Shown: positions 32,440 through 62,109 of the stretch, in pieces | How the letters are laid out: every line of letters starts with the position of its first letter | Numbering within the stretch: the first letter of the stretch is position 1 | Assembly: GCA_051313645.2 (NCBI GenBank) | Contig: JBNRSN020000015.1 | Location: 52,514,001 to 52,578,000, forward strand | Length of the DNA: 64,000 nucleotides | From: Centroscyllium fabricii | Taxonomy: Eukaryota | Direction: 5' to 3' | Notes under the pieces: generated by a model | What the model saw: only the letters and a program-made list of their open reading frames with translations | Databases searched by the model: none | What the model was told of the DNA's origin: nothing | Translations under genes and position numbers: made by a program

Positions 32440-32692
32440 AGAGAAAGAGAAAGAAAGATCATCAGCCTTCCAGCACCTGCAGTATTTTCTTTTTTATTAG
32501 TGTTTAATTCACTGCCACCTCTCTTCTAGGAATGCCCACCTTGAAGAAGTTCTGCTGTCCGTCTCCGCAGCATCTGTTCTGACGATGCCACCTTCTGACG
32601 AAAGGTAATTGATCTGAAACGTTAACTGTTTCTCTCTTCACAGATGCTGCCTGACCTGCTGAGTTTCTCCAGCATTTTCTGTTTTTATTTCA
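32440..32692 (+). mobile_element. Rearranged Penelope-like terminal fragments including a minimal hammerhead core (32595-32623)
   Basis: Reverse complement of the 40040-40230 type sequence; CTGACGA-A-AGGT..ATCT-GAAAC-GTT. Confidence 0.7.
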
Positions 32693-33765: not shown

Positions 33766-35746
33766 AGGGCATCACCATAAGTCTGGTTAATATTTATTGT
33801 TGGGAACCTGCTTAACAAACAAAAGCTTACAGGGGTTAAATGGGTTAATCGCCAAAAATGAGCATCGGGATGCGATTAACACATGCAGGCAGCACTTTAA
33901 ATTCGTGCTGCCTGCCATTTTAAATGATTGCTGTGTGCAATTGGCTGCCTGCATCAGCAAGTGGCCCAATATCCTGAGTGGCTAAAGCTACTTAAAGGCA
34001 GCCTTAAAGGGGAGGTGCATTGTGGCTGCAAGAAGTGGTGGGAGATTTTGAAAAGTGAATCTGGCCTGTGATACTTTGAGGAACAGCTGAACATATGAGA
34101 GAGCGAGCACCAAGGTTTTCAGACAATGCACTGGAATAAAAGCAGAAAATGCTGGAGAAACTCAGCAGGTCAGGCAGCATCTGTGAAGAGAGAAACAGAA
34201 TTAACATTTCAGGTTGATGACCTTTTGTCAGAACTAGAAAAAAGCAGGAAATGGAAAAGAATTTTAAGCAAGTGAAGAGGCTGGGAAATGGGGGAGGGGA
34301 TGAAAGAACAAAAGGGAAGGTCTGTGATAGAATGGAAGACAGAAGAGATTAAGAGGCATTAAGAGATATTCAAGGCAAAAGGAGATGGTAATGGACAGGT
34401 TAAGAAACAAAGGATGGCTCTAGATGAAGTGTAAATTGTGCTGGCAGAATAAAAGACAGCTGCCATGTGGGGGAGAAGAAAAAAAGACTGACAAAAAGTG
34501 TGGATAAGAAATATATATATATATATATATATATATGATAGGGGCTGAGGTTATGATCTGGAATTGTTGAACTCTATGTTGAGTCCGGAAGGCTGTAAAG
34601 TGCCTAATCGAAAGATGAGGTGCTGTTCCTCGAGCTTATGCTGAGCTTCTGTGGAACAATGCAAGAGGCCGAGGACGGTGAGGTCTGAGTGGGAATGGAA
34701 TGGTGAATTAAAATGACAGGCGACCAGAAGCTCGGGGTCCCCATTACGGACTGAATGGAGGTGTTCCTCAAAGCAGTTACCCACTCTGCATTTGGTCTCC
34801 CCACCTGTTTCCCCTGGAAGGGGTGTTTGGGGCCTTTGACAGTTGATAAGGGGGAGGTATAAGGGCAAGTCAAGGGCCATGTCAACCACTGTAGAGGGGA
34901 ATCCTCGGTTGAGGAAAAAGGAAGACATGTCGGAAGCACTTGTATGGAAGGTGGCATCGTCAGAACAGATGCGGCGGAGACGGAGATAATGGAAGAATGG
35001 AATAGTGTCCTTACAGGAGGCGGGGTGGAAGGAAGTGTAGTCCAGGTAGCTGTGGGAGTCAGTGGGCTTGTAGTGAATGTTTTTCAATAGGCTATCCCCA
35101 GAGATGGAGACGGAGAAGTCGAGGAAGGGAAGGGAAGATTTGAAGATAGACCATGTGAAGGCAAGGGAAGGGTGGAAATTGGAAGAAAAGTGAATGAAGT
35201 TGTCTGGTGCAGGGCGAGAGCAGGAAATGGCACTGATACAGTCATCAATGTACCAGAAAAAGAGGTGAGGGAGGGGACTCGAGTAGGACTGGAACAAAGA
35301 GTTTTCCACATATCCCATGTAAAGGCAGGCATAGCTAGGACCCATGCCAGTTCCCATAGCAACACCTCTGATTTGGAGGCAGTGAGTGGAGTCAAAGGAG
35401 AAGTTGTTCAATGTGAGAACAAGTTCAGCCAGGCGGAGGAGGGTGATGCTGGAAGGGGACTGGTTGGGCCTCTGTTCAAGGAAGAATCAGATTGCCCTCA
35501 GGCCATCCTGGTGGTGGATGGAGGTGTAGAGGGATTGTACTTCCATAGTGAAAAGGAGGCGGTTGGGGCCAGAAAACCGAAAACTGTTAAAGTGGCGGAG
35601 TGCGTTGGAAGAGTCGTGGATGTAGGTGGGAAGAGACTGGACAAGGGGAGTAAAAATGGAGTCGAGATAGGAAGAGATAAGTTCCATGGGGCAAGAACAG
35701 GCTGAAATGATGGGTCTACCAGGGCAGTCCTGTTTGTGGATCTTCA

Positions 35747-39820: not shown

Positions 39821-40783
39821 GCCGAATATCTTGGAGATATCTGTAGTCCTGGGTGGATCCTAAACATTTCAATTGGAATCCACATGGAGTAAGTCGGAGC
39901 CAGAGACAGTTGCTGAGGAAAGAGATGTGGCTGTGAAACCGAGTTTTGGTCGATGCATGATTAAACACGAGAAGGGAGACAGAAAGCAATGAAGATAAAC
40001 AAGGTAAAAGAGACAAATGGAACTCCCGTCAGAGAGAAGAACAGAATTTCTTCAAGGTGGGCATTCCTGGATGAGAAGTGGCAGTGAATTAAACACTAAT
40101 TCACTAAACACATAGTTTCTATGTTTAATACAAAAAGAATATACTGCAGATGCTGGAAATCTGAAATAAAACCAGAAAATGCTGGAAAACGCAGCAGTGC
40201 AGGCAGCATCTGTGAAGAGAGAAACAAAGTTAATGGGGGGGATTTTCGGAGGGCCGTGCGTGCGGGTTTCCAGCAGGGCGGGGCTTAAAATAGCAAAACC
40301 GGGGGGACCCGACCACTCCCGCCGGATCTCCGCCGCGTTGCAATTTTCGGACGGCGCGTCTAAGCGGCCCGAATCTTTCCTGCCCGCTACCGGCGGGAAT
40401 GCTCGTAATCCTCATTAAGGGCCCTTTATTGCTATGGATAATCCCATTTTAAGAGCCCCCGGCTATTTTAAAGCGTTTCCCACCCAAAACCCGCCATCCT
40501 GAAACCCCGCCGGTGAAACCTAACAGGAACATAACCAACCGGTTACCTGATTATCAGCAGCAGGTCCATTATTACGATTCACATTTAAGCTGCCTTCATT
40601 GGCAGCTGGGAGGACAGTCAGTCTCAGGCCTGGGGCAATCTGTTGCAGGCTTCACTAGTCTCTCGGAAGGCTCCAGCCCCACACACTTCTGCAGTGTAAC
40701 CTCCTGGGAAAGCCCTCTGTCTACCCTCACTCAGTGCTACACCATCAGTCAGTGCTACCTCAGTGGAGGCAGGCACCAGAAGC

Positions 40784-41932
40784 ATGGGAGGCCTTTTTTT
40801 CCTTCCCTTCCTGGCATTAGAGGATCTCCAGCAGCGGAGGCAGCAGCAGCAGATACAGCAAAAACAGCAGATGCAGCAACAGCAGCAGAACCAGGAGCGA
40901 CAGGCTCCTGCTCACCCTCCGGAGACAGCACAGGCCAGAAGGAGCCAGCGCTTGGAAGCCCGTCAGCGCAGGAGATACCCCCCAAACAGGGTTTACAGAC
41001 ACAGGGCCAGCTATCTCAATATGACTGAACGGCAGTGCCAAAGGTGGCTCTGACTTTCACGACAGGTAGTGACTGATATCTGCGCAATGCTGCAGCAAGC
41101 CCTGGAGCCCAGAGCACCAGTCGGACACTCCTTACCAGTGGCCATCAAAGTCACCACCGCATTCAACTTTTTTGCCTCAGGCTCATTCCAGGGATCATCA
41201 GCCGACATCAGCGACGTTTCCCAGTCAGCCGCGCACACTTGCATCATGCAGGTAACTGATGCCCTCTTTGCCCTCGTGCACAATCACATCCATTTCACCA
41301 GGGATCGCACAAATGTGAGGGCGCGAGCGATTGGCTTAGCTCATATGGTAGGCTTTCCAAGGGTGCAGGGCATCATTGACTGCACACATGTGGCTCTTAA
41401 GGCACTCCATGCCAACCCAGGGGCTTTTGTCAACCGCAAGGGCTTCCACTCCCTCAATGTTCAGCTGGTGTGTGACCACAAGAAGGAGATTTTGCATGTA
41501 TTTGCCAGGTACCCTGGCAGCTGCCATGACTCTTTCATCCTGCGCCAGTCTACTGTGCCTCTGCTCTTCAGCCCACCACATGAACTTGAGGGATGGCTAC
41601 TTGGAGACAAGGGCTATCCACTGAGGACTTGGCTAATGATGCCGTTGAGGAGGCCAGCCAACGAGGCTGAGGAGCACGACAACTCCAGCCACATTTCAGC
41701 AGACAGGGTCTCCAGAATGGTCGTGGTCTGCTGTACACTGCACAACATGGCACAGTGTCATAGCTTGCTGATGCCTGACGACCAAGAAGCTCCTCTCATA
41801 CCCTCCTCAGATGATGATGATAATGAGGAGGAGGATGAGTACAAGGAGGAAGGTGAGGATGAGGACAAGGAGGGCAAGGAGGCCGTGGAGGCCACAAACG
41901 AGCATCCTGCAGAAGCCCGTCAACCAGCGTGA
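40784..41932 (+). pseudogene. Harbinger (HARBI1-like) DDE transposase with one premature stop and a C-terminal deletion
   Basis: [45 protein letters not shown]; stop at 41051-41053; region with the catalytic E appears deleted near 41695. Confidence 0.9.
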
Positions 41933-42232
41933 GCATTATGCAAGACCGTTGCTTCCTGGGCTGCAAGGAACGCAATCATCCTGGGCAGATTTGCTTAGCC
42001 TACTCAATGAAACACTTTTGACTCACAGCTTCCTAACTGAGCCATGGCCAAGACCCAGTGGATTCCTAGCTAGTTCTCCAGCATACTAATAATTGCAAGT
42101 ACTCATAAGCTCTCAATGTGAAATCCCTATGCGCTAAATTACGCACGTCACAACTCCAACAGTTGCCATCAGATTTTTACTACAAATTACATAACTGATG
42201 ACAACACTTCACCCAAGTGACTAGCCTTGTGA

Positions 42233-44177
42233 TTATTTGTGCAGTATCTTTCTCTTACATGTGCTCCTACGTAGTGGTTCCCCTGTGGCTTCAGCAGATG
42301 TGGAGGCCCCTTGCTCACTTCCCTGCTGCTCCTGTCTCGACACCTTTGGTGGGCGTCCTCTGGGGTGGCGAGCCTGTGAGGGCTCACCAGCAGTCTGCTG
42401 CTCCTGCGGCTGTGCAGGGGTTGGGATGCCTATCTTGCTTGGGTGTGGACTCTGGTGGGGCTCTGACCGAGGCATGGAAGTGTAAGCGCGTGGAGAGGAG
42501 ACCCCACTTCCTTAAGGTGTGCCAGCAACCTCCCTCTCATGGGTCAACTCCCCCTCAGTGTCTGCAAGTGGCTGGAGAACAACTTGCTGCACATCAGTGG
42601 GGCCATGGGGACCCGCATCTGCAATGGCAGTCCTTCTCAGAAGGACTTCCATGAAGGCCTAGTTTTGGTGTTCAATAGCTGCCCATCACTCCTCCAGAGA
42701 TGTCAGTTGATTCTGAACACTCACCATGGTTTCATCACTCCGGCGACTTACTTTTTCCATGGCTGTAGCTAGCCTTTCCATGGAGGTTGCCATCCTTTCT
42801 GCGGTGCAGCGTTCATGCACCTGTGACTCCACAAAGGCTCTGCTCATGTTAGCTATAAACTCCTCCATTTGCTCCACACTCGCAGTGACCCTGGAGACAA
42901 AACCTGCCAGAGACTCCTGCATCTGCTCATGGAGTTCCATCACCTCTGCTGTCGCGGAGGGACCCAGAGGCTGAGGGTCGACATGCAGCTGAGCTGAGCT
43001 GGCAGAGTCCGGCACCCTCCGACTCGGACTCTCTACTGCTGTCGCTGTCTCCACAATCTGCTGATGCTCACTTGTGAGCTGTGATTCACCAGGTGGCAAC
43101 ACTATGCTATGTCCCGAAGGTCCCACCGAGGATTGAGTAAATGCACTGGTGCTGGGTGCACAGAATTCTGCTGATGCTGCACCCTCAGAGGTTGCAGCTT
43201 CCTCTGAGAAGTCTTCAGCCTCAGCCTCATCCTCCTGCACAGTGGGGATGGGGGCTCTCGCTGGTCCTGTGGGGGAGTAAAGGAAAGTGTTAGAGAAGTG
43301 ATGGCAAGGTTATATGCACATTGCATCTTGCAGATGATCATAATTCGATATGATGTAGATTCACCATCATTATCTGCCACTATTGCGATGTCAAGAGAGA
43401 GATGGGAAACGATTCTGTCACCAACTTGTGATGATGCCCCTGTCTCTCCATCCCCAACTTGCGCCATCACTTCATCCCCGGCTACCTCCACTGCTGCTTC
43501 CTCCCAGTTGGTCAGGTGTGCGATGGAGGGTAGGTCTCCTCCTGTCATTGCTTGCTCCTGTCCATTATGAGCTCTCTTTTCCTGCAATGAGGGAGACAAG
43601 TTGAGGTTCAGTGAGAATGAAGGAGTGAGTGCAAAGAGTGCCAGACATAGATAGTTGGAGGGATACAGAAAGATGCAGTGAAGTAGCAAAACCAAGGTCC
43701 CTTCCTGTGTTCTGTCAGTTGTGCTCCAAGTATCAGAGTGAGAGGGAGTGTGAGGGTTGCTCAGTGGAATAGTTAAGTGTTTGCAAGCATAGAGAGAAAG
43801 GGAATGGTTAAGGGTGCATGGATGTGAGTGTGAAGTGGGGTGTAGCGGAAGAGATTGGTGAAGCAAAGTGCTGGTGAGGAAAGGCAATCGGGATCAGATT
43901 GAGGGTGATGGGAACTTCATACTTACTTTTTCAGATCGATGCAGGTCATGGAATCTCTTTCTACACTGGATCCACAAACAAGGTGTCAGGGCGACGGAGT
44001 TCACTGCTTCAGAGATCTGCTGCCAGGACAGGGAGGTCTCTTCCTCCCTGATGCAGGGAAGAAAAACTCCCTGTGGGCCCTAGCCCCCTCTACCAATGCC
44101 TGTAGTGAGCCTTCGTCAAACCTTGGGGCGGGTCAGGCCCTACCACAGACACCAGCTGCTGCAGGCTCCTGCTCCAT
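42233..44177 (-). pseudogene. Harbinger Myb/SANT-like gene, three exons
   Basis: Exon 1 ..PRFDEGSLQALVEG.. (~44177-43927), exon 2 EKRAHNGQE.., exon 3 acidic/coiled-coil ORF 42686-43240; homologous to 58012-60462. Confidence 0.8.
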
Positions 44178-44195
44178 TCTCTGTGCTGTAATGAG

Positions 44196-44566
44196 GATGA
44201 CACGGCGGTGCAGTGGTTAGCACTGCTGACTTGCAATAAGGAGCTCCTGGGTTCGAATCCTGCTTGGCCCGGGATCTCTCTGCGTGGAGTTTGCATGTTC
44301 TCCCCGTGTTTGTGTGGGTTTCCTTCAGGTACTCCGGTTTCCTCCCACCACCCAAAGACATGCAGGTTAGGTGAATTGGAGATACAAAAAAAATAAATTG
44401 ACCATGAGTATGTGTGTGAGATACAGTTCTTAGAGTTGGGGGTGTCAGGGGAGAGGGTAGGAGGGGGATGCTGGGTTTGGATGATCAGCCATGATCTTGT
44501 CAAAATGGCAGAGGAGGCTCGAAGGGCCAAATGGCCTACTCCTGCTCCTATCTTCTGTGTTTCTGT
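44196..44566 (+). mobile_element. tRNA-derived V-SINE, different subfamily
   Basis: GGTTCGAATCC B box, V-domain, CR1-type tail; TSD ATGAG at 44191-44195 and 44567-44571. Confidence 0.85.
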
Positions 44567-45850
44567 ATGAGAAGCCTGCAGATCGAGGAAGGCTTGCTGC
44601 GTGCCTAAAAAGCAACAGACATGATGACGTCATGCTGTGCGACTTTCTGACTGGAAACAGTCAATTGGCAGGGGCTCTGACACGCTGGGAATTAATTGGC
44701 CAATTGAGCCAAAATATGCGTGGGGCTCCCAGGCCCTTAGACATTAGGGACAGTAACCTGATCCGTCCAAAACCCGCCAGTATCCCAGACCTTTGCAAAA
44801 ATGCCCCCCAATGTTTCAGGTCGATGACCTTTCATCAAAACTGGAAAAAAGCAGGAAATGGAACAGATTTTTAAGCAAGTGAAGAGGCTGGGAAAGGGGG
44901 GCGGGATGAATGAACAAAAGGGAAGGTCTGTGATAGGATGGAAGGTGGGAGACAGTAAGAGATATTCAAGGCAAAAGGAGATGGTAATGGAACAGGTTAA
45001 GAAGCAGAGGATGGCTCCAGATGAAGTGTAAATTGTGCTGGCAGAATGAATGCACTGGACATCTTGGTGCAAGATGTGGAGAGAAAGAGAGACATCCTAT
45101 ATCCGCGGGGGTGGGGTGGGGGCGGGAAGAGGCAGTGGGAAGAAATAACGGCAGTGGTGAATACCAGGAGTGTTGCTCCAAGAACATAGATGCCGAGCAG
45201 GAAGAAGTTTAATGATCTGACATAAGTTGTTAAGGTAAGTGAGTTTATTTTCAAATGGCATATCCTACCACTTGCACCAGTAGCCTCATCCATTGCTCAA
45301 TTCACCGCACCCATCACCCACCTACCAACAGTCTCTATCAATCAGTACTTAACCCTTTAATCAATACTTTATTTCACCCTCACACATGTAGTATTGTTAC
45401 AAGCCTCGCACACACATCTCACAGCTTGCACACACTGGCAGCTAATCAACTATGACAGCCACATCAGCCAAATATATTGCAGGACACTCACTGATACACT
45501 TCCATAGCTCATGGAATAGGTAGGTTAGTGGCAGCTTGGATAAGGAATTGGCTTAAGGGCAGAAAACAACGAGTTGTGGTAAACAGCTGTTTTTTAGACT
45601 GGACGATCGTAGACAGTGGTGTTCCCCAAGGGTCAGTGCTGGGGCCACTGCTTTTTTGATATATATTTATGACTTGGATATTGGAATACAGAGTAGAATT
45701 TCTAAATTTGCCGATGACACCAAACTTGGGGGTGTGGCAAACAGTGATAATGATACCAATTGACTGCAACAGACATAGAAAGGCTAGCAGAATGGGCAGA
45801 CAAGTGGCAGATGGAATTTAATACAGAGAAGTGTGAGGTAATGCATTTTA

Positions 45851-46146
45851 GCCCTGTTCCTGGGACTAGGGACAGTGTCACTGGCAAGGCTTGCAAGCTA
45901 AGCAGAGCCAGGCCTGGTTAATACTTGGATGGGTGACCACCAGGGAATACCAGGTGCAGAAGGTCACTGAAAGGGGCCCCGGGGAGGGGTGGTTGGCTGA
46001 AGATTGTCAGAATGATGGAAAGATGGAATGGCGGCGTGCACAGACACAGCGGCTTTGCTAGACTCTTGGGAGCTTGCAAGATCACATTTGATTGTTCATA
46101 TACTTGTACATTGTATAATGACAATAAAGTTGAATTATTATTATTA
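45851..46146 (+). mobile_element. 5S rRNA-derived SINE (SINE3-type)
   Basis: 45895-45957 AAGCTAAGCAGAGCCAGGCCTGGTTAATACTTGGATGGGTGACCACCAGGGAATACCAGGTGC matches the 5S internal control region; tail GACAATAAAGTTGAA(TTA)n. Confidence 0.8.
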
Positions 46147-48132
46147 GGCAGCAGGAACAGGGAGAGGCAATAAACACTTAATGGCACAGTTTTAAAGAGT
46201 GTGCAGGGATAGACGGACCTGGGAGTAAATGTACATAGGTCCCTGAAGGTGGAAGGACATATTGAGAGAGTGGTTAGCAAAGCATATGGGATCTCTGGCT
46301 TCATAAACAGAGGTATTGAGTACAAAAGTAGGGAAGTTATGCTGAACCATTATAAAGCGCTGGTTAGGCCACAACTGGAATATTGCGTCTAGTTCTGGTC
46401 ACCACACTTTAGGAAGGATGTGAAGGCCCTTGAGAGGATGCAGAGGAGATTTACCAGAATTGTTCCGGGGATGGGGGATCTGAGCTACAAGGACAGGTTG
46501 GAGAAGCTGGATTTGTTTTCATTAAAGCAAATGAGGTTGAGGGTGATTTGATAGAGGTGTACAAGATTATGACAGGTCTGGATAGGCTAGATGGGGAAAG
46601 GCTGTTCCCACTAGTTGATGGTACAAGGATTGGGGACACAGATTTAAGGTTTTGGGCAAGAGATACAGGGGGTACGTGAGGTAAAACTTTTTAATGCAGC
46701 GAGTGGTGGTGGCCTGGAACTTGCTGCCGACAGAATTGGTGGAAGCAGACACAAAGGGGTAAATATTCCCTGAGGTGTGGGGTATTGGCAGATTTCCGGC
46801 AGGTCAGGTTTACCACACAAATCCTAGGCCTGGGAGCCCCATGCAATTTTGGCTAAATTGGTCAATTGATTTCCAGCGTGTGGGAACCCTTGGCAGGTGA
46901 GTATTTCCAGACAGAAATTCGCACAATATGATGTCATCATTGCTGGTGCATTTCTGGTCCACAGCAAGCCTTGCTTCTGTTGCGGACTGCCAACCTTTTG
47001 CCCTTTCATGCCAGAGAGACAAGGAGGCAGAATGACCATCGAGCGACCTAGGTCTGCTTCCAGGTTTGATTGATGTGGCCCTGCAAGCTTTAGTTGAGGG
47101 AGCAAGAGCTCATAAAGAGGTGCTCTTCCCTTCTTCAGGGAGGAAGAAGTCTCCCCAGCAGGCTGTGTGGATCCAGGTGGCAGAGGAGGGCAACTCATTA
47201 TCAGTACCCCGCAGAACCTGGATTCAGTGCAGGAAGAGATTTCATGACCTTCTGCGCACTGGAAAATTGAGGATGGAATTCCCATCACCCTCAGCCTGAT
47301 CCCCAATGTCTTTCCTCACCAGCACGCAGCTTCAGCAATCTCTTCCTCCACATCCCACTTGACACTCACATCCATGCACCCTTACCCATTCCCTCTCTCT
47401 CTATGCTCACATTCACATAACTATTCCACCATGCAGCCCTCACACTCCCTCTCACTTTGATGCTTTGAACACAACTGACAACACATATGGAGTGCCCTTG
47501 GTCTTGCCACCTCACTCCAACTTTGTCTCCTTCTAAGTATCAAGATAGGGACAGCAATGGAGAGTCCTAGTCGGAGGGCGCAGGACTCTGCCAGCTCGGC
47601 TCAGCTGCATGTCGACCCTCTGTCTCTGGGTCCATCCATAAGGTTGGCGGTGCAGGAACGCCAGGAACGGGTGCAGGAGTGGGTGGGTGAGCAGCAGCCT
47701 GGAGCTCCTGCTGCTGCTGTTCTTCCTGGTTCTGCCGATGCCACGCCTGGTGTGGGAGCTCATCTAATGCCCAGAAAGGAAAAACGTGAATGGCTTCCAT
47801 GCTTCTGGCATATGCCTCCGCTGAGGAAGCACTGAATGAAGGTGCCAAGAGGGGATTCCCAGGAGTTCACACTGGAAATGTGTGTGAGGCTCCAACCTAC
47901 CACAAGTGTGCTTAAGACTTCTAAATGTTGCCCCAATCCTGAAAAATAAGGTCTTGCCACCTGCATATGATGGCTGATTCAATCTCATGCTTTATGATGG
48001 ACCTGCTGCTGAGAATCAGCAATCCGATTGTGTCCCCACTAGGTTTCAATGGCGGGGTTTCCAGCTGGTGGGTTTTGTGTGGGAAAAGGCTGAAAATGGC
48101 AAGGGCCCCTTAAAATGGCATTATACATGTCA

Positions 48133-49056
48133 TAATGTGGAGGTGCCGGTGTTGGACTGGGGTGGACAAATGCAAGAAGTCACACAACACCAGATTATAG
48201 TCCAACAGTTTTATTTTAAATCAGAAGCTTTCAGAGCTTTTGCCCCTTCGTCAAGGTGAAAGAGAGAGACTGACTTAAAGAAAACACATATGTGATGAAG
48301 GGAGAAATCGGATATCTCCCACATCTCACCTCAGTAGAGATAGACAATGGATGAATGGGCACCGCGCAACAATCGCCAGGCAGGAGTGTTCCCTCCCAGT
48401 CGGGGAACATTTCAGCAGTCAAGGACATTCTGCTTCCGATCTTCGGGTGAGCATTCTCTAGGGTGGCCTTCGAGACACACGACAACGCAAAATCGTCGAG
48501 CAGAGGCTGATAGCCAAGTTCCGCACCCATGAGCACGGCCTCAACCATGATATTGGGTTTATGTCGCGCTACATGTGACCCCGCCTGACATAGAGTCATC
48601 CAGATGCGAACCATCTTTGGCTTGTTCTGCGATTTTAAGTAAGAAAAATCCTTGTTTTAAAAAAATCATTATGTGGGATTTAAAGCAGACTGTAGTGTTT
48701 GACCCTTTGTGACTGCACCCTTTGATCTCAGGCTGGCTGATATGTTTGAACACCTTTGATTGCTTTGATGTCCCTCAGCTGAGGTGTCATGTGAAACAAC
48801 TGGAGAGACCACATTGTTATCTCTATATATATATGCTATGTTTAAATGAAACACTTAAAATATGTTAATAAGCCTTTGTGTGTCTATCTCTACTGAGGTG
48901 AGATGTGGGAGATATCGGATTTCTCCCTTCATCACATATGTGCGTTCTTTAAGTCAGTCTCTCTCTTTCACCTTGACGAAGGGGCAAAAGCTCCGAAAGC
49001 TTGTGATTTAAAATAAAACTGTTGGACTATAATCTGGTGTTGTGTGACTTCTTGCA
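48133..49056 (+). mobile_element. Truncated Penelope-like element P2 with inverted pseudo-LTRs
   Basis: 13-bp TSD ATTATACATGTCA at 48120-48132 and 49057-49069; 176-bp inverted repeats 48171-48346 / 48881-49056; GIY-YIG C-terminus MNGHR...PVGEHF...EQRLIAKF...GLN. Confidence 0.88.
48968..49006 (+). ncRNA. Minimal hammerhead-ribozyme-like motif in the P2 terminal repeat
   Basis: TCAC-C(T)TGACGA-A-GGGGC-AAAA-GCTCC-GAAA-GCTT-GTGA: stem I TCAC/GTGA, 5-bp stem II, palindromic stem III; extra U in the core. Confidence 0.65.
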
Positions 49057-49410
49057 ATTATACATGTCAATTAAGGATGATTAAGGTGCCTAAAGACCAT
49101 TCCCACCGGTTGCGGGTGGGAAAGACTCAGGTTACTCAGACATGGCAGGGGTAAATCACAAGGTGTCAGGAAACCGGTGGGAGGGGCTGGGACCCCTGGT
49201 TTTGCAATTTTGCGGCCCACCCTGCCGAAAAGCCCGCCTGACGGCTCAAGAAAAATTGACCCCTGGATAGCCACTTGAGGGAAATAAAGTTGCAGAGCTA
49301 TGGGGATAGAGCAAGTGAATGGGACTGACTGGATTGCTCTACCGAGAGCGGCATGGACTTGATGGGCCGAATAGCCTCCTTCTGTGCCATTATGACTCTA
49401 TGACTATGAC

Positions 49411-50372
49411 TATAAATGACCTGGATACTGGAATACAAAGTAAAATTTCTAACTTTGCAGATGACACCAAAGTTGAGGGTGTGGCAACAGTGAGGAAGTT
49501 ACCAATCGACTGCAACAGGACATAGAAAGACTAGCAGAATGGGCAGACAAGTGACAGGTGGAATTTAATACAGAGAAGTGTGAGGCGATGCATTTTTGCA
49601 GAAGGAACAGGGAGAAGCAATATACACTTAATGGAACAGCTTTATAGAGTGTGCAGGGACAGAGGGACCTGGGAGTTAATGTGCATAGGTCCCTGACGGT
49701 GACAGGACATATTGAAAGAGGGTTTAGCAAAACATTCAGGATTTTGGGCTTCATAAATAGAGGTATTGAGAACAAAAGTAGAGAAGTTATGCTGAAGCTT
49801 TATAAAATGCTGGTTAGGCCACAACTAGAATATTGCGTCCAGTTCTGGTTACCACACTTTAGGAAGGATATGAATGTCTTTGAGAGGGTGCAGAGGATAT
49901 TTACTCGAATGTTTCTGGGCATGGGGGATCTGAGCTACAAGGACAGGTTGGAGAAGCTGGATTTGTTTTCATTAGAGCAAAGGAGGTTGAGGGTGATTTG
50001 ATAGAGGTGTACAAGATTATGACAGGTTTAGATAGGCTAGATGGGGAAAGGCTGTTTCCACTCGTTGATGGTACAAGGACTAGGGGGCACAGATTTAAGG
50101 TTTTGGGCGAGAGATACAGGGGGGATGTGAGGAAAAACTTTTTAACGCAGCGAGTGGTGAGGACCTGGAACTCGTTGTCGACGGAAGTGGTGGAAGTGGA
50201 GACACTAAATATTTTCAAAGGGAGACTGAATAGGCACTTGAGGGAAATAAACTTGCAGGGCTACAGGGATAGAGCGAGGGAATGGGACTGACTTGATTGA
50301 TCCACAGAGAGCTGGCACAGACTCGATGGGCCGAATGACCTCCTTCTATGCCGTATGACTCTATGTATGACT
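49411..50372 (+). mobile_element. Second 5'-truncated CR1 LINE, head-to-tail with the first
   Basis: NFADDTK, RPQLEYCVQFW, TRGHRFK, (CTATGA)-type tail. Confidence 0.88.
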
Positions 50373-53009
50373 TTATGATTTCCCTCTTTCTTGCAAGAGA
50401 AGGTGGCATATGACAGGAATCAGCAGGAAGGGACTGGAGGAGGACAAGCGCGCCTGCATGTTTCAACCACCATGGAGGAGACCGTGCTGGCTATCATGGG
50501 AAGGGGCTTCGCTGAGGCTGTGGCCACTGGTGGGGCTGGATCGATGGATGATGAGGGTATCTGCCTACCTAACCCTCCTTTTCTCTTTTTACTTCTCTCT
50601 CATCCCTCAATCTCTTCTCAGGGTGTTTACATTATAGCCTCCCTTCCTCTTCCTGTGCCTCCACTTCATGTTGCACTTCTTCCTCCTGCACTTCCTCGAC
50701 TTCTTCCTCCTCCTCCTCCTCATGCTCCTGCACCTCAGCTTCTCACCTGATAGGTGATGGGAAGGGCTGTTTATCATAATGGTAAGGTTTTGCAGCATGC
50801 AGCATACTAGTACAAACCTTGATACCCACTCAGCTGACTACAGGGCTCCTCCGGAGCAGTCCAGGCAGTAGAACCATTGATTGAGGACGCTGATGATGTG
50901 CTCTATAATGTTCATTGTGGCAGCTAGGCTCTCATTGTTAGTCTGCTGTGCACACGTGCGTGAATTCCAGACTGGAGTCATGAGCCATGCCATGAGTGGG
51001 TAACCCTTGTTGCCCAGCAGCCAGCCTTTGACATGCTGTGGTGGTTCAAATGTAGCTGGCACAGGGGACTACTGCAGATTGAAGGAATTGTCACTGCTGT
51101 CAGGATAACTGGCATTTATTTGCATGATGTGCTACCTGTGGTTGCACAACAGCTGCACATTGAGGGAGTGGAATCCTTTTCAGTTCAAGAAAATGGCCAA
51201 GTTCACATGAAGTGTACGCGAGGCAATGTGCATGCAATTAATGGCAGCCTGCACCATGGGAAATTTTGCAACCTGTACAACCGTTCACTCCACCTGTTTG
51301 TCTCTGACAAGTGGGAATGAGATTAAACTGTTTCTCTGTGTACAGATAGCTTTAGTGACATCCCTTATGCAGCAGTGTACTGCAGACTGCAAGATGTTGC
51401 TTACCTTAGATCTGCAACAGCAGCCTGGAAGGAGCCAGGCACATAAAAGTTAAGAGCCACGGTCCCCTTGATAACCACAGATAATGCTGTCCTTGCCCTG
51501 TATTGAGGTTGCAGTTGTGGTTGCAGCAGTGGGCAGATTTCAGTCATGACTTCTTTTGTGATGCAAAGATGTCTCATGCATCCTCACTGAAGTTGAGGAA
51601 AGAGACTTGCTCCCTAAAGATCCTTGGCGGATATGGCCACCTGCTGAGAGCCCTTCTCCCCCCACCCTTCCTCCTCCTTCCCCTTCTTGCAGCTAGTCCT
51701 GCTCTGCGTGGCCTCTCTTCATTCTCCCAGTCATGTTAAATCCCAAAGGAAGCTCTACCAGACCACTCATATCTGGAAGCAACTTCTTTCAGCGCAAGAT
51801 TTTAAATGAACAACAAAGTATTTCAACATTAACCAGACCACTCCCTGTATACTATTCAAACTTTAGTCAAGTATAGGAAAACTCCAAAAACATACAATTG
51901 CACCAGTAGCCAGAAGAAATAACACAGCAACTAACCTGCAAGTAGTTCATGATCTCTTTAAATAGCACTGGTGGAGGGGGCGGAGAGGGAAATCCTTCAT
52001 TCCGTTTAATGTTGTGTTCAGCTGTGTGAGGTTCAGATAGGGCTGCCGTTTACATTTGGAAAATGGCAGTGCTGGTGTCAAATCAAAGTTGCACCATGAT
52101 TTGCGTGAAGATCTGCCTGCTCTGCATGCTGCCACAGGACGTGAGTATATGCCCATGGCAACCCCTTTCCCAAAATAGCATTCTGTGCACTTCCCATCGA
52201 AAGTGTGTGCACGCATCTCGGATCCTATTTTTGAGCGTTATGTGGCTGCATAGCAACTAAAAAACGGACACTACAGAGCCCAATTTAGCCCTCTACAAGT
52301 CTAAAATATACTCAGTAGCCTTATTATATAAAACAAAGCATAGCAGTACTAGACTAGCAAATTCCATCAAATTGTTTAAGATTGTTGCTGGATTCCTGCT
52401 GCTACCTGACTAATCCTTTCCATTCTCGTACATTACATTCTCCTAAAATCATTATCTAGCAACTCAAAACATGGTATACATTACACACAGAATGATGGAC
52501 ATTGAAAGCAACAATTACATGGAGCAACAATTACATGGAGCAGTTCAGGTAAAATATTGAAATTTAAGCAGTTTCTAATTTGCAGCTAATCTCTGAGATG
52601 AGACCAGGGTCTTAAAATCACTGGTGGAGACCTACTGCATACACTGCAATGTTCTTGGAGCAATTTTATTCTGTACACAAAGGTTGTTGTATTCTCTGGG
52701 AGAGGGGGTCTGTCTTGGTGGACTCTTGTGTGCACTATGTTGTTAATGCAGAACAATGGCACCGATATTAACTTGGAAGGTGGGAGGGATCGAGGGGGGC
52801 AGGTGGTGCTGTTTTGTGGTCGGGAAACCTGGAAGAATGGGTTTCCCCCCAGGTCCTGCTGCATTTAATGACAGGGCCTGATTAATATTTTTGTCTTTGA
52901 GATTGAGACTGGCTGGCTGTTGGGTAGAAATGCCCGTGACACCCGGCCACAGCCGGGGAGCAGTGAGGAGGGAAGGAGAAATCGTGGATCAAATGCCGGG
53001 GATCGATCA

Positions 53010-55463
53010 GAGGGTCGGAGACATCGGGGGTCAGAGATATCGGGGGTTAGAGACATCGGGGGTCAGCGACATCAGGGGGTCAGCGACATCAGGGGGTTAG
53101 AGATATCGGGGGTCGGAGTCATCGGGGGTCGGAGACATCGGGGGTCGGAGTCATCGGGGGTCGGAGTCAACGGGGGTCGGAGTCAACGGGGGTCGGAGTC
53201 ATCGGGGGTCGGAGTCATCGGGGGTCGGAGTCATCGGGGGTCGGAGTCATCGGGGGTCGGAGTCACCGGGGGTCGGAGACATCGGGGGTCGGAGTCACCG
53301 GGGGTCGGAGTCACCGGGGGTCGGAGTCACCGGGGGTCGGTGTCATCGGGGGTCGGAGTCATCGGGGGTCGGAGTCATCGGGGGTCGGAGTCATCGGGGG
53401 TCGGAGTCATCGGGGGTCGGAGTCATCGGTGGTGGGAGACTTCGGGGGTCGGAGACATTGGGGGTTGGAGACATTGGGGGTTGGAATCATGGGGGTTGGA
53501 GACATCTGGGGTTGGAGACATCTGGGGTCGGAGACATCTGGGGTCGGAGACATCTGGGGTCGGAGACATCGGGGGTCGGAGACATCGGGGGTCGGAGTCA
53601 TCGGGGGTCGGAGTCATCGGGGGTCGGAGTCATCGGGGGTCGGAGTCATCGGAGGTCGGAGTCATCGGGGGTCGGAGTCATCGGGGGTCGGAGTCATCGG
53701 GGGTCGGAGTCATCGGGGGTCGGAGTCATCGGGGGTCGGAGTCATCGGGGGTCGGACACATCGGGGGCCGGAGACATCGGGGGCCGGAGACATCGGGGGC
53801 CGGAGACATCGGGGGCCGGAGTCATCGGGGGCTCGGAGTCATCGGGGGCTCGGAGTCATCGGGGGCTCGGAGTCATCGGGGGTCGGAGTCATCGGGGGTC
53901 GGACACATCAGGGGTCAGGACATCGGGGGTCAGCAACATCAGATGGTCGGAGACATCGGAGGTCAGCGACTTCGGGGAGTCGGAGACATCGGGTGTCGGA
54001 GTTATCGAAGGTCAGAGACATCGGGGGTCAGAGACCTCGGGGGTCAGCGACATCGGTGGTCGTAGACATCGCGGGTCAGAGACATTGCGGGCCAGAGACA
54101 TCGGGGGGACAGAGACATCGGGGGTCAGAGACATCGGGGGTCAGAGACATTGGAGGTCAGAGACATCGGGGGTCAGCGACATCAGGGGTCAGAGACATCC
54201 GGGGTTGGAGATATCGGGGGTCAGAGACATCGGAGGTCAAATATATCGGGGATCAGTGACATCAGGGGGTCGGAGTCATTGGGGGTCGGAGTCATTGGGG
54301 GTCGGAGTCATTGGGGGTCAGAAACATCGGGGGTTAGAGACATCGGGGGTCATAAACATCAGGGGGTCGGAGTCATCGGGGGATCAGAGACATCAGGGGG
54401 TCGGACATTGGGGGTCAGAGACATCAGGGGGTCAGAAACATCGGGGGTTAGAGACATCGGGGGTCAGAGACATCAGGGGGTCGGAGTCATCGGGGGGGTC
54501 AGAGACATCAGGGGGTCGGAGTCATCGGGGGGTTGTAGACATCGGGGGTTAGAGACATCAGGGGGTCGGAGCCATTGGGGGGGGTCGGAGACATCGGGGA
54601 GTCAGAGTCATCGGGGGGTCGGTGAAATCAGGGGGTCACAGACATCGGGGGGCCGGAGACATTGGGGGGCCGGAGACATCGGGGGGTCAGAGACATTGGG
54701 GGTCAGAGACATCGGGGCTCAGAGACATTGGGGGTTCGGAGACATTGGAGGTCGGAGACATCGGGGTTCAGCGACATCGGGGGGTCGGAGTCATCGGGGG
54801 TCAGAGACATTGGAGGTGTCAGAGAGATCGGGGTCGGAGTCATCGGGGGTCGGTGACATAGGGGGTCGGAGACATCGGGGGGTCAGAGACATCGGGGGTT
54901 GGAGACATTGGGGGTCAGAGACATCAGGGGGTCAGAGTCATTGAGGGGTTGTAGACACCGGGGGTTAGAGACATCAGGGCGTCGGAGTCATCGGGGAGGT
55001 CAGAGACATCGGGGGGTCAGAGTCATCGGGGGGTCGGTGAAATCAGGGGGTCAGAGACATCGGGGGGCCGGAGACATCAGGGGGTCAGAGACATCGGGAG
55101 GTCAGAGACAGCAGGGGGTCAGAGACATCGGGGGGTTGGAGACATCGGGGGGCTCAGAGACATCGGGGGGTCAGAGACATCGCGGCTCAGCGACATCGGG
55201 GGGTCGGAGTCATCGGGGGTCAGAGACATCGGAGGTGTCAGAGACATCGGGGTCGGAGTCATCAGGGGTCGGAGACATCGGGGTTTGGAGTCATCGGGGG
55301 TCAGAGACATCGGGGGTCAGAGTCATCGGGGGTCAGAGTCATCGGGGGTCAGAGTCATCGGGGTCAGAGTCATCGGGGGGTCGGAGACATCGGGGGTCAG
55401 AGACATCGGGGGTCAGAGACATCGGGGGTCAGAGACATCGGGGGTCAGAAACATCGGGGTCAG
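53010..55463. repeat. G-rich minisatellite, ~16-bp unit GGGGGTC(G/A)GAG(T/A)CATC, roughly 150 copies
   Basis: Directly visible tandem array; the long ORFs over it are translations of the repeat. Confidence 0.97.
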
Positions 55464-55465
55464 AG

Positions 55466-55968
55466 TTTCTTTTTATCCATTGATGGGATGTGGGCATCAC
55501 TGGCTGGCTAGGCCTGCATTTAGTGCCCATCCCTAATTGCCCTTGATAAGATGGTGGTGAGCCACCTTCTTGATCCGCTGCAGTCCATATGGTGTAGGTA
55601 CACCCACAATGTTGTTAGGAAGGGAGTTCCAGGATTTTGGCCCAGCGACAGTGAAGGAGCGGCGATACAGGTCCAAGTCAGGATGGTGTGTGGCTTGGAG
55701 GGGAACTTGTAGGTGGTGCTGTTCCCATGCGTCTGCTGCCCTTGTCCTTCTAAGTGGTAGAGGTCGCGGGTTTGAAAGGTGCTGTTGATGGAGCTTTGGC
55801 GAGTTGCAGCAGTGCATCTTGTAGATGGTACACACTGCAGCCACAGTGCGCTGGTGGTGGAGGGAATGAATGTTGAAGGTGGTGAATTAGGTGCCAATCA
55901 AGCGGCCTGCTTTATCCTGAATGGTGTCGAGCTTCTTAAGTGTTGTTAGAGCTGCACTCATCCAGGCA
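55466..55968 (-). mobile_element. 3' fragment of a CR1/L2-group LINE inserted near the end of the minisatellite
   Basis: AAVCTIYKMHC..RRSFTVAGPKSWNSLP C-terminal motif and A-rich tail; repeat units resume at 55969. Confidence 0.75.
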
Positions 55969-57129
55969 AGACATCGGGGGGGTCGGAGACATCGGTGGTG
56001 GGGGCTGGAAGGACTGGAAAGGCCAGAGAAAGAAGCATGTGGTTGAAGGGGAGAAAAGAGGCCTGGGGTGGGGATGGGCAGTTTGTACGTATTGGGGGGG
56101 GGGGGGGGGGTGTCAATCGGAAGTCAGGGGGGAGATTCGGGGGTGGGGGGAGTGGGTGTGAAATCGGAAGGATCAGAGGTGAGATGTGGGTTTGAGCTTT
56201 TTTAATTTTTGTATCCCGCCCGACCCAAACCCACCTGTTTTTGGGGTTAAAATCCCGACCAATGTATTCAGTTGACAATTGAAATATGTGGCAAAAACAG
56301 AAAATGCTACAAATGCAGGGCAGGACTGTTAGCACCTGTATGGGGAAAAGCCAGGTTACAGTCCTATTAGCCAAGCAAGCTAATTTGTAAATGTAGTGCA
56401 GAGACAAACTGGGCTGGGAGGGGGGAGGTGGGGAGCTAACAGCTGCTACTTTTCAGTTCAGATTCGACAGACTTCAAAAGGGTAACAAGATTTAGCTTTG
56501 GGCAGATCTGCACCATGTGTAGGCTGTGGGGGTTTGTGAAGTGTGTGAGTGAAGGTGAGATGCAGGCTTTCAATCTGCTGTGTGACTAAAGAAGCTGTTG
56601 ATCTCCTCTTGAGCGATGAGGAGAGGAGTCGTGAACTCATTCACTAAGCTGGGCTAATTGTTTTAATTAGAAAAGCAAACGGAATTCAGCACTTGTACAG
56701 TGAAATAGATATGAAGCTGTGAGATTGAGGCCATTACAGTTAAGTGATTGACTGTCTGTATATGCCAGTTGCTGAGATAGATAATAGATGTACTCCCTCT
56801 CTTTTGATAGATATAATTTGGTGATTAGATTAATAGGAAAAATATACCAGATGTGGGAGAATTTTTAGTTTCAACATCAGGGTTCTGCAACATGTGCATG
56901 AGTGTTTTCTTTTCACGATGATTGCCAGTCATTAATGACATCAATGTTGGTTGTGATCTTATTCTGAAAACTGTTCTTTAACTTTTGTTTTGGATGTAAT
57001 AGGACGATTCCCTCTGGTGGTTAGGAGGTCTGATTGTTGGGAATGACTAACAATGAGGCTCTTAAAAACATGCTTAATGGTTGAGAGAAACATTTCACAT
57101 TAGGGGAAAAAGCAATGATGATATCTTAC

Positions 57130-57373
57130 TGGATATTTCCTGAAATTTCTTTCAGTATCTCATTTCCAGTAATGGTCAAAATGTAATTGAAATGTTCACT
57201 GCTCGCTGCTTTTGCATACCAGTGGATCACCTCCTTCCATTCCACAGGCCTCTCCATGGCTGGTATCAGCACTGCTCTGTGGTCATGTGACAGGAATTGA
57301 GTTTTTGTAGAGGTTAGAATGCCAAGCGTTTCAAAACACTGCCTCCCACCATCCTTGGAATGATTGCTGCGAC
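57130..57373 (-). CDS. Candidate host-gene exon (80 codons, product unknown)
   Basis: TTCCAAG| acceptor, open frame RSNHSKDGGRQCFETLG...EWKEVIHWYAKAASSEHFNYIL...SGNI, |GTAAGA donor, in non-repetitive AT-rich DNA. No homology recognised. Confidence 0.3.
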
Positions 57374-58011
57374 CTTGGAAATATTATGCCAAAGAAGACA
57401 ACTGATCAAAATTGAATAATATTGGTAGTACTAGTAGATGCTGCAGTTTACAAACCTGAGAAAACACAAAATAAGTAGAAGCCATTTGTCCAATCAAGTC
57501 CAATCCTTCCACAGACAATCTGCTCTATCAGGAACTCTACCCAATCCATTTAATATCCTGGAGAATGGTTCTGTTCTGAACAATATGCCCTTCCACTCAC
57601 CAAAGAGTCCAAGACTCCACTGTTCATACAATAGCAAAAGACTGTGGATGCTGGAAATCTGAAATAACAACAGAAAATGCTGGAAACACACAGCAGGTCA
57701 GGCAGTATCTGTGGAGGGAGAAATAGAGTTAATGGGGTCGATTTTAACTCGGGTGCGGGCAATTGTCGGGTTACCCGAATTTCGTGTTTCCCACACGAAT
57801 CTAAATGGGTGTGTGAGATTGATGCAATGTTAACTCAATTGACCAATTGATTTCCAACATGTGGGAACCCTTGGCAATTGAGTATTTCCAGTCAGAAAGT
57901 CGCAGAATATTACATCATCATTGCTGCTGCTTTTAAGGTCCGCAGCAAGTCTTGCTTCTTCTGCAGGCTTCCAAGCTTTACCATTATGATGCAACAGGAG
58001 CCTGCAGGAAC

Positions 58012-60462
58012 AATGGCCAGCAGGAGGGCAAGAGCTGCTCCAAAATTTGATGAGGCTTCACTACAGGCATTGCTGGATGGGGCCAGGGCCCACAGGGAGG
58101 TCCTGTTCCCTTCTTCAGGGAGGAAGAGGACTCCCAGCCACAGCAAGGCTGTTTGGCAACATAGAAACATAGAAGATAGGAGCAGGAGTGGGTAATTTGG
58201 CCCCTCGAGCCTGCTCCGCCATTCGATGAGATCATGGCTGATCATCCAAACTCAGTACCCCGTACTTGCCTTCTCCCCATATCCCTTGATACTTTTAGCT
58301 CTAAGAAATATACCTAACTCCTTCTTGAATATATTATATGACTTGGCCTCAACTACATTCTGTGGTAGAGAATTCCACAGGTTCACCACTCTCTGGGTGA
58401 AATTCTTCCTCATCTCTGTCCTAAATGGCTTACCCTTAATCCTTAAACTATGACCCCTGGTTCTGGACTCTCCGACCATCGGGAACATTCTTCCTGCATC
58501 TAGTCTGTCCAGACCTGTCAGAATTTTATAAGTTTCGATGAGATCCCACCTCATTCTTCTAAACTCCAGCGAGTATAAGCCCAATTGACCCAATCGTCCC
58601 TGTATGTCATTTCTGCCAGCCCAGGTATCAGCCTTGTGAATTTTCGCTGAACTCCTTCCATGGCAAGAACATCCTTCCTCAGATAAGGTGACCAAAACTG
58701 CACACAGTACTCAAGGTGTGGTCTCACCAAGGCCCTGTACAACTGCAGCAGGACATCCTTGTTCCTGTACTCAAACCCTTTCGCTACGAAGGCCAACATA
58801 CCATTTGCTTTCTTCACCGCCTGCTGCACCTGCATGCTTACCTTCAGCGACTGGTGCACAAGGGCATGCAGGTCTCGTTGCACTTCCCCTTCTTCCAATC
58901 TATTGCCATTCAGGTAATAGTCTGCCTTCTTGTTTTTGACACCAAAGTGGATAACCTCGCATTTATGCACGTTATATTGCAACAGGTGGCTGGGGAAGTC
59001 AACTCCTTGGGGCTCACACGAAGTACGTAGATTCAGTGCCGGAAAAGATTCCATGACCTTCATTGCACTGGAAATGTAAGTATGAAGCTTCCATCACCCT
59101 CAATCTGATCCCCATTGCTTTTCCTCACCAGCACTCAGCTTTAGCAATCTCTTCCTCCACATCCCACTTGACACTCACATCCATGTACCCTTACCCATTC
59201 CCTCTCTCTCTATGCTCACAGTCACATAACTATTCCACCATGCAGCCCTCACACTCCCTCTCACTCTGATGTTTTGAACACAACTGACAACACACAGGGA
59301 GGGCCTTTGGTCTTGCAACCTCACTCCATCTTTGTCTCCTTCAAAATATCTATGCTATGCAATCTCTACACTCACTCCTTCATTCTGACTCAACCTCCAC
59401 TTTTCTCCCTCATTGCAGGAGAAGAGAGCTCACAACAGGAGAGAGCGAGCCAGGGCAGGAGGAGGCCCACCCTCATTAGCCCAGCTCATCCCCTGGGAGA
59501 AAGCCATCCTGGAGTTAGTAGGGGCTGATGCAGATGTGGAAATTGGGGAAGGACAGACAAGTGCATCCTCGCAAGCTGGTGACAGAATAGTTTTCCATCT
59601 CTCTCATTGACATTGCATGAGTCGCTGATAATGATTCTGAAACAATATCATATGGACTTATGATCATCTGCAAAATGCAATGTGCATGTAACCTTGGCAT
59701 CACATCTCTAACTCTTTCCATTACTCCCCCACAGGACCATCGGGAGCCCCCGTCCCCACTGTGCAGGAGGAAGAGCCTGAGAATCCAGACCCCTCAGAGG
59801 AATCTGCAACCTCTGAGGACGCAGCTTCAGCAAAAATAAGTGCACCCAGCACCAGCACAGACACTCACATCCGGGGGGAACCTTTGGGACATAGAGTAGT
59901 GTTGTCACCGGGTGTATCACAGCTCACAAGTAAGCATCAGCAGATTGTGGAGATAGGGACAGCAGTGGAGAGTCCTCATTGGAGGGCGCAGGACTCTGCC
60001 AACTCGGCTCAGCAGCATGTTGACCCTCTGCCTCTGGGTCCATCCATAAGATCAGAGGTGATGGAACTCCATGCACAGATGCAGGAGTCTCTGGCAGGTT
60101 TTGTCTCCAGGGTCGCTGCGAGTGTGGAGCGAATGGAGGAGTCCATAGCGAACATGAGCAGAGCCTTTGTGGAGTCAATGGCGCATGAATGCATCAACAT
60201 GGAAAGGATGGCTACCTACGTGGAAATTATTGCTGCCTCCATGGTAAGGCTGGCTACCGTAGAGGAGAGGATGGCTGCGGTAGAGGAGAGGAGGACTACG
60301 GTTGCAGAGAGGAGGGCTACGGCCATGGAGCAGGTTAGTCACCAGGGTATGGAAAACATGGTGAGTGTTCAGAATAGAATGACATCTCTTGAGGAGCGAT
60401 GGGCATCTATTGAACAGAGAAACCAGACCTTCATGGAAGTCTTTCTGAGGACTGCATTGTAG
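58012..60462 (+). pseudogene. Harbinger Myb/SANT-like gene, three exons, exon 1 broken by CR1
   Basis: MASRRARAAPKFDEASLQALLDGARAHREVLFP; donor GTAAGT ~59076; exon 2 EKRAHNRRERARAGGG; exon 3 ORF 59761-60462. Confidence 0.85.
58162..58978 (-). mobile_element. 5'-truncated CR1 LINE
   Basis: KCEVIHFG, RPHLEYCVQFWSP, TRGHSL, (TTTCTATG)n tail; probable TSD GCAACA. Confidence 0.9.
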
Positions 60463-62109
60463 ATATGGTTCTCCATGGCCCCCCTGATGTGCAGCAAGGT
60501 GCTCTCCAGCCACTTGCAGGCACTGAGGGGGACCTGACCCATGAGAGGGAGGTTGGTGGCAGACCTCAAGGAAGTGGGGGCTCCTCTCCAAGTGCTCATA
60601 CTTCCATGCCACTGCAGAGCCCTCGGTCAGAGCCCTGCCGGAGTCCACACCCAAGTGAGATAGACATCTCAACCCCTGCACCGTCGCAGGAGCAGCAGAC
60701 TGTTGATGAGCCCTCACAGGCTCACACCCCAGAGGACGCCAGCCAAAGGTATTGAGGCAGGGGCAGCGGGAAAGTGAGCAAGGGGCCTCCACATCTGCTG
60801 AAGCCACAGGGGAACCACTACATAGAAACATAGAAAATAGGAGCAGGAGTAGGCCATTCGGCCCTTCAAGCCTGCTCCACCATTCAATTAGATCATGACT
60901 GATCTGTAGGAGCATGCGTAAGAGGAAAATAAAGCACAACTAGTCACAAGGGTAGTCACTTAGGTGAAATGTGTATTTTGTAAAAATCCTATCAGTTGTT
61001 TGTTTTCCATAAAAAATCTGATGGCAACTGCTGCAGTTCTGGCGTGTGTCATTTCGGGAATGGGGTGTTCATATTGAGGGCTTAGGATTACTTGCAGTTG
61101 TCAGGATGCTGGTCAAATAGCAAGGAATCTGCAGGGTTTGGACATTGTTGATGCTCAGGTAAGAAGCAGTGAGGCTAAAGTGTTTGATGTACGAGGCTAA
61201 GCAAACCTGGCCAGGATGAATGCGTTCCTTGCATCCTGGGCAGCAATGTTCTCGCGTAATGCTGCCGCTGGTTGATGGTCCTCTGCAGGATGCTCGTTTT
61301 CACCCTCCTCCTCCTCAGCATCATCATCTGAGGCGGTTATGTGAGGAGCCACTTGGTCCTCTGGAATCTGCAAGTCACGACGCTGTGCCATGTTGTGATG
61401 GCTCCCATGCTTCTGGCATATGCCTCCACTGAGGAAGTGCTGAGTGAAGGTGGCGAGAGGGGTTTCCCAGGAGTTCACACTGGAGATGTGTGTGAGGCTC
61501 CAACCTTCCACAGGTATGGTTAAGCCTGGTAAAGGTTGCCCCAGGCCTGAAACAACAAAGTCTTTCCACCTGCAACTGATGACTGATGAAATCTCCTCTT
61601 TAATGGTGGACCCGCAGCTGATAGTCAGCAAGCCAATAGCGCTCACACCCAGTTTCACAGGCGTGATTCCCACCAGGCGTGTTTTATGTGGGAAAAGGGT
61701 TAAAATTGCAAGGGACGGTTAAAATTGCATTATAAAGGCCAATTAGTGCTGATTAAGGGCCCTAAAGATTAGTCCCACCTGTTGCAGACAGGACTGATTC
61801 TGGACCAACAGATACGCCTGGGTAAAAATGGCTAGTTGTCAGAAACCAGGCAGGGCGGGTCCCGATCCCTAGTTTTTGCAATTTTAACTCCCCACGCGCC
61901 TCAAAGCCCACCTGATGGCTGAGTTAAAATCAACCCCAATGTTTCAGGTTGATGACCCTTTATCAGAACTGGAAAAAGTTAGAGATGTAACAGATTTTTA
62001 AGCAAGTGTGGGGGCAGGGAAAGGGAGGATAGTACAAAGGAAAGACCTGTGATAGGCTGGAAGGCAGGAGAGATTAAAAGACAAAAGGGACGATGGTGCA
62101 AGACAAACT

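Follow-up and report, generated by a model that had tools for sequence, protein, structure and literature searches.

The 64,000-nucleotide window of Centroscyllium fabricii DNA analysed here, to which all window positions refer, carries two Harbinger transposons, H3 and H5, each inserted into a copy of a Penelope-like element (PLE). The features of both insertions, together with two empty copies of the same target, are as follows.

32595–32627 (core part 32595–32623), plus strand: empty target copy in another PLE repeat
34199–34235 (core part 34203–34231), minus strand: empty target copy downstream of the PLE ORF
34551–35486, minus strand: decayed PLE ORF, 3' part (end of the endonuclease region), with 84% identity over 83 aa to the L244 ORF
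40228–40231, minus strand: the H3 host PLE's hammerhead stem I, 3' strand, now parted from the core by the insertion
40232–40234: left copy of the H3 duplication, AAT (sequence read)
40235–44809, plus strand: decayed Harbinger element H3, whose TIRs are short, imperfect and G-rich
40453–41929, plus strand: broken transposase gene of H3, with a DDE_Tnp_4 match in 41054–41929 (Pfam E 4.1e-23)
44810–44812: right copy of the H3 duplication, AAT, at the N-U-H triplet position on the minus strand (sequence read)
44810–44842, minus strand: in the H3 host, the hammerhead-like core (first base mutated) together with stem II and the 5' strand of stem I
57731–57733: left copy of the H5 duplication, AAT (sequence read)
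57734–61937, minus strand: Harbinger element H5, of a family other than H3 and in reversed orientation, by comparison with H3
61404–61709, minus strand: N-terminal transposase remnant of H5, similar to that of H3
61938–61940: right copy of the H5 duplication, AAT (sequence read)
61938–61970, minus strand: in the H5 host, the hammerhead-like core (one base mutated) together with stem II and the 5' strand of stem I

The 3-bp target-site duplications, the short TIRs and the DDE_Tnp_4 transposase of H3 are those of PIF/Harbinger elements. In H5, the region 57851–58192 holds a candidate ORF start that we take to be Myb/SANT-like in appearance; a Pfam search for a Myb domain in this candidate second ORF gave no match. 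Since LINE fragments lie within both H3 and H5 (44448–44564 and 58158–58710, respectively), both elements are decayed. H5 aligns with H3 on the opposite strand only, at 67–84% identity, and the TIRs of the two differ. Their host repeats share 79% identity over 261 nt and are therefore separate PLE copies. Thus, the original prediction, which described two AAT-flanked insertions at the same base with different TIRs and opposite orientations, holds in both coordinates and features, and the unoccupied copies that it had described, here placed at 32595–32623 (plus strand) and 34203–34231 (minus strand), have the letters that it gave.

The host repeat runs opposite to the window's plus strand and lies downstream of a decayed ORF. 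Translations of host ORFs from elsewhere in the genome (L009, L026, L068, L244) presumably end in a reverse transcriptase, a Cys/His-rich linker and a GIY-YIG-like region, and the nearest Atlas clusters of the L244 ORF carry GIY-YIG and HTH_animal (0.96–0.97). Pfam gave no match on the decayed host PLE frames. Taken together with the match of the window's own ORF, the reverse transcriptase/GIY-YIG reading and the Atlas neighbours therefore identify the host as a Penelope-like element. Its motif comprises a four-pair stem I, a core box, a bulged base, a five-pair stem II, GAAAC and a triplet. Across 18 hand-picked copies, 96.9% of cells were paired and two pairs had changed on both sides; the covariation score of these copies, with kinship among them ignored, was reached by 7 of 500 shuffles. 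An Rfam scan of the window returned no hammerhead match. Judged by its core boxes, stems I and II, the bulge before stem II and the compensatory changes, the motif appears to be of the minimal-hammerhead type, in support of the Penelope host and hammerhead originally proposed. The duplicated bases correspond to hammerhead positions 16.2, 16.1 and 17, where a minimal hammerhead has its N-U-H triplet, and each insertion would thus part the hammerhead core from its stem I 3' strand.

Several other repeats were observed in the window. Two further Harbinger-type ends of the same G-rich kind lie off the PLE site, at 37559 and 39820. Several LTR-retrotransposon pieces, nested in one another and matching protease, RT, RNase H and integrase, occupy 870–28700, and a G-rich tandem array of 16–17-nt units occupies 52900–55500. 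A weak 5S rRNA match (45847–45962; 29 bits, below the gathering score) is perhaps the head of a 5S-derived SINE.

A genome-wide, base-precise Harbinger hot spot

The genome (7.21 Gb) was searched with exact patterns. One downstream pattern, applied genome-wide, recovered 28,856 empty sites and 2,863 filled right junctions (1,153 + 1,710), an occupancy of 9.0%; the pattern behind the 1,153 junctions also admits a CAT triplet, present in 5 of the 100 matches listed. Reversed-pattern controls gave 0 matches. With a TIR-anchored pattern, 4,407 element ends were found to adjoin the 8-base half-target, and 3,296 of these run on exactly as PLE; among sampled ends beside the half-target, 28/30 lay in PLE. 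The filled loci include at least six terminal types in both orientations. Consequently, the idea no longer depends on the two events from which it was drawn, and the single specialised Harbinger family that had been envisaged is replaced by several families sharing the site.

The share of each family at this site was read by hand in samples from one contig chosen by element end only. On-site insertions made up 13/85 for the N1 MITE, 8/29 for H3-type and 1/30 for H5-type elements, and 0/22 for the N3 MITE. Six loci without true termini were left out, and four others (L124 and L193, false automatic calls; L195 and L205, ambiguous) were all counted as off-site. These fractions differ from the pattern of target-specific transposons, nearly all copies of which occupy one target, and even the best families insert mostly elsewhere. 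The N3 MITE (L163–L192) has a nearly strict AWT duplication, and PLE-site cases of it exist outside the sample (L079, L213, L241). Given a site density in the flanks of ~57 per Mb, a figure based on 5 true filled-type matches counted by eye, the 21/114 on-site insertions of N1 and H3-type elements correspond to an excess of about 3,000-fold (3,200-fold) over chance. The genome-wide preference for this base that was originally proposed is thus supported, with both orientations represented.

The hot spot is also precise to the base. Among the matches listed and counted by eye, ~82/95 left and ~83/94 right junctions fell on the main triplet, i.e., ~85–88% of nearby insertions, and 8 junctions on each side lay 6–8 bases off it (-6/-8); the remaining junctions were unclear, and no clear one was seen on the stem II side of the triplet. 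Examples of the secondary sites 6 and 8 bases away are L115, L151, L208, L238, L252, L220 and L237, and PLE subfamilies with GUC-type triplets seem to favour the -8 site over the triplet. L256 and L257, an inverted PLE repeat pair, each carry an insertion in the motif; the two Harbingers differ and lie ~70 bases apart.

According to the original prediction, insertion took place in copies where CpG decay had already created AAT. The duplications of 42 insertions with both ends recovered, a set without three mis-paired loci, read AAC/AAC in 14 cases, AAT/AAT in 11, AAC/AAT in 10 and AAT/AAC in 7 (left/right). Hence the two duplicates differ (AAC versus AAT) in 17/42 insertions, the left and right states are independent (Fisher p 0.35), and AAC is commoner than AAT at filled right junctions. 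A G follows both copies of the duplication, and each can therefore decay at its CpG separately after insertion. These findings contradict insertion into pre-decayed copies: the duplication is natively AAC/GTT and decayed after insertion. The AAT share was ~39% in filled copies versus 15/100 in the empty copies listed, which suggests that the empty copies include many younger ones and that occupancy is at least 9%. By nearest-neighbour distance, the filled hosts were slightly but not significantly older (0.081 vs 0.058, p 0.11).

Two PLE-derived forms were noticed among the filled and empty copies. One subfamily (L062, L065, L067, L069, L070, L071) shares a 650–720-nt extension past the hammerhead-like motif, represents ~16/52 empty and 5/60 filled copies, and is possibly a non-autonomous, retrozyme-like element. 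The other, a near-identical fold-back PLE stub (L072, L286, L287, L290, L311, L313), represents 6/52 empty and 0/60 filled copies and may be carried by another young element.

Target letters, context and independence

Outside PLE, the targets of N1 and H3-type elements form a weak palindrome (G/C, A, A/C, A, C, then an A/T-rich triplet), giving a roughly palindromic 13-bp preferred target with GAAAC as its best half-site. GAAAC is also the conserved hammerhead box immediately before the cleavage triplet, and the 3-bp duplication therefore falls on this triplet. An additive matrix built from 46 decayed off-PLE sites ranked offset 0 first, followed by -6 and -8, among 61 surrounding positions, matching the observed order of junction positions.

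A comparison was provided by a second hot spot. Among the listed non-PLE ends with the same half-target, 40/100 lay at one place in a CR1-type LINE subfamily, the ORF2 coding motif RMFP (L373, L374, L390, L391, L393, L402; empty copy in L347). CCC-ending elements had filled this site 174/3,504 times (5%), and 5 further filled rows among the 100 matches listed end in GCC. These insertions show clean duplications, two families and both orientations, and no hammerhead was seen at the LINE hot spot. PLE subfamilies whose stem II differs had 372/23,744 copies (1.6%) filled, with ages uncontrolled. GUC-type triplets are the best-cleaving kind of hammerhead triplet. They occurred in 51/100 empty and 14/100 filled sites among the matches listed, counted by eye and with ages uncontrolled; a tally of 52 vs 13 gave p 4e-9. 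With subfamily age and chromatin uncontrolled throughout, the under-representation of GUC-type copies among filled sites and the filling of a LINE site where no hammerhead was seen argue against the special role of the cleavage triplet initially envisaged. Separately, Harbinger insertions were seen in short tandem repeats (L138, L242, L202, L053, L054) that we take to be LINE 3' tails, a possible third hot spot.

The LINE site is unrelated to PLE but similar in its letters, and its occupancy is about as high; the DNA letters, rather than the ribozyme, are therefore likely to be decisive. Our preferred reading, to which we assign a probability of about 0.7, is that many Harbinger families have independently hit one PLE triplet, with their transposition proteins reading DNA letters and not RNA or its cleavage. 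The link to the cleavage triplet would then most likely arise because GAAAC coincides with the Harbinger half-site. By analogy, the PIF/Harbinger transposase and a Myb-like ORF1 protein would perform the reading, and selection on the ribozyme would preserve the half-site across a few hundred thousand copies, making the repeat a sink.

The additive matrix is nevertheless insufficient as the whole cause. It predicts ~50-fold enrichment versus the ~3,000-fold observed: non-PLE sites of 4–6 bits were hit at 17 times the mean rate and those of 6–8 bits at 84 times, and the score of the PLE site ranges from 5.3 to 7.8 bits, so that the matrix under-predicts its rate 40- to 200-fold. By a rough estimate, plain half-sites are filled at about 0.2%. 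The weaker PLE half-site is a poor target by itself, with 6 non-PLE rows among the 100 listed versus ~300 ends at the best half-site, counts uncorrected for background abundance. Furthermore, the -6 site in the same PLE copies has a higher matrix score and received ~nine times fewer insertions (~460 vs 4,100).

As part of the preferred reading, this shortfall suggests that the actual target is longer and lopsided, spanning ~19 bp. Such a target would combine a perfect half-site with a purine-rich block located 3 to 11 bases past the other side of the duplication. The suggestion was drawn post hoc from two hot spots, PLE and LINE, which agree at 8/9 bases in the weak-side block from -11 to -3; the H3 and H5 hosts in the window each differ from the longer motif by one base. 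In a two-point scan of LINE variants, a variant with 7/9 bases showed 1 filled copy among 100 listed, of 16,246 sites (upstream flank seen in three loci; age uncontrolled), and this low filling fits a longer motif. The motif was absent at 12/12 ordinary strong half-sites with a readable other flank. A bolder and less probable version is that a vertebrate Harbinger clade reads this ~19-bp target, perhaps tuned to the conserved PLE hammerhead. If true, this would describe a semi-target-specific DNA transposon that parasitises the ribozyme of another mobile element, split in thousands of copies, and such a Harbinger could be directed to a chosen landing pad.

It is less probable, though still worth weighing, that the letters choose the base and the context makes the excess, through methylation at the edge CpG, young retroelements being transcribed or in open chromatin, an R-loop or hairpin, or overlapping bursts of PLE and Harbinger activity. 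An excess of 40- to 200-fold relative to score-matched sites points in this direction, as does the presence of 28/30 half-target ends in PLE even though the 8-mers are ~three times commoner outside PLE. Both hot spots also lie within retroelements, and inverted partner repeats accompany 10/60 filled versus 4/52 empty copies; the latter difference is not significant (p 0.25), and a cruciform context was set aside on this basis. Against a contextual effect, the -6 site is underused in the very same copies despite its higher score, which indicates that a regional effect is not the main factor, and the LINE site, without a CpG at the duplication, is still 5% filled.

Slightly less credible again is that Harbinger specificity evolved so as to make a safe harbour of the PLE motif, in the way that Dada uses small-RNA genes. 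The site takes 15–28% of the insertions of two families and hosts at least six terminal types, as such an adaptation would have it, but 72–85% of the insertions of these best families lie elsewhere, N3 contributed 0/22, and the occupancy of the LINE site is similar. Moreover, the preferred half-site resembles the zebrafish Harbinger3_DR target as given in the excerpted text of PMC3016246, which suggests that the preference is older than the use of PLE.

The preferred reading, that separate families read the same letters, also requires that the insertions be independent. On the N1 tree (65 copies), the on/off-site label needs 16 changes versus a shuffled mean of 16.1, and on the H3-type MITE tree (22 copies) 9 changes versus 7.2. 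On-site copies are thus scattered over the family trees, and the insertions are therefore independent; together with the two orientations and the several host subfamilies, this supports the independent insertion at the same base that was originally claimed. Amplification of a few composites was accordingly rejected: multiplication of a few insertions by PLE retrotransposition of a composite or by segmental duplication could account for one same-orientation on-site sister pair on the N1 tree (L008, L082) and one duplicated pair among the junctions listed, but it is very improbable as a general explanation, since on-site copies cluster no more than shuffled labels and involve many families. For H3 and H5 themselves, the identical site and AAT duplication might recall a single ancestral insertion, duplicated and later inverted between its TIRs, a scenario ruled out for practical purposes by the differing TIRs, the 67–84% internal identity and the 79% identical hosts, which indicate two events, as originally argued.

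Relation to known systems and significance

In Xenopus, the sequence-specific LINE Tx1L inserts into Tx1D. The present case is similar in that a mobile element occupies a fixed base of another mobile element, and differs in that a partly specific cut-and-paste DNA transposon does the inserting. PIF/Harbinger elements combine a 3-bp duplication with a palindromic preference beyond it, of 9 bp in plants and 15 bp in vertebrates, according to excerpts of PMC2836001 and PMC3016246. As far as these excerpts go, zebrafish Harbinger3_DR and plant PIF/mPing share with our elements the duplication, the extended palindromic preference and similar half-sites; unlike them, 15–28% of a family here sits on one base of another mobile element, at a rate 40- to 200-fold above the additive matrix. 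Dada and Pokey are described in the excerpted text of PMC3706591 and PMC8869645 as DNA transposons specific for multicopy RNA genes. On that description, the likeness lies in a DNA transposon inserted into a multicopy RNA-encoding motif, whereas here several families share a target that lies in a retroelement repeat, and their specificity is not strict.

The first half of the study on PLE minimal hammerheads (Cervera and de la Pena 2014, PMC4209133) describes a short stem I, an unpaired base before stem II, the absence of helix III, palindromic 15.2–16.2 positions, and thousands of mostly single truncated copies; it does not describe hammerheads as transposon targets. The layout of our host motif, known from sequence alone, is the same as the one described there. 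Term look-ups in PMC8437027 and bioRxiv 10.64898/2026.07.22.740005 showed no Harbinger insertion in PLE hammerheads in the text retrieved. We found no report of Harbingers in PLE hammerheads; subscription papers, Repbase reports and supplements lay beyond our scope and may hold one. Extended Harbinger target preference is thus known, and the new element is its concentration on one base of a PLE hammerhead-like motif.

In one PLE hammerhead subfamily, an inserted transposon now divides ~9% of the copies. Where the half-site is by chance contained in a conserved RNA motif with hundreds of thousands of copies, a loose target preference can come to work, in effect, as a safe harbour. Furthermore, the repeat subfamilies constitute a natural mutational scan of Harbinger target choice, in which an additive 13–15 bp consensus proves to be an incomplete description of Harbinger targeting. 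This bears on how ORF1 and the transposase choose a site, and on the use of PIF/Harbinger enzymes for targeted insertion.
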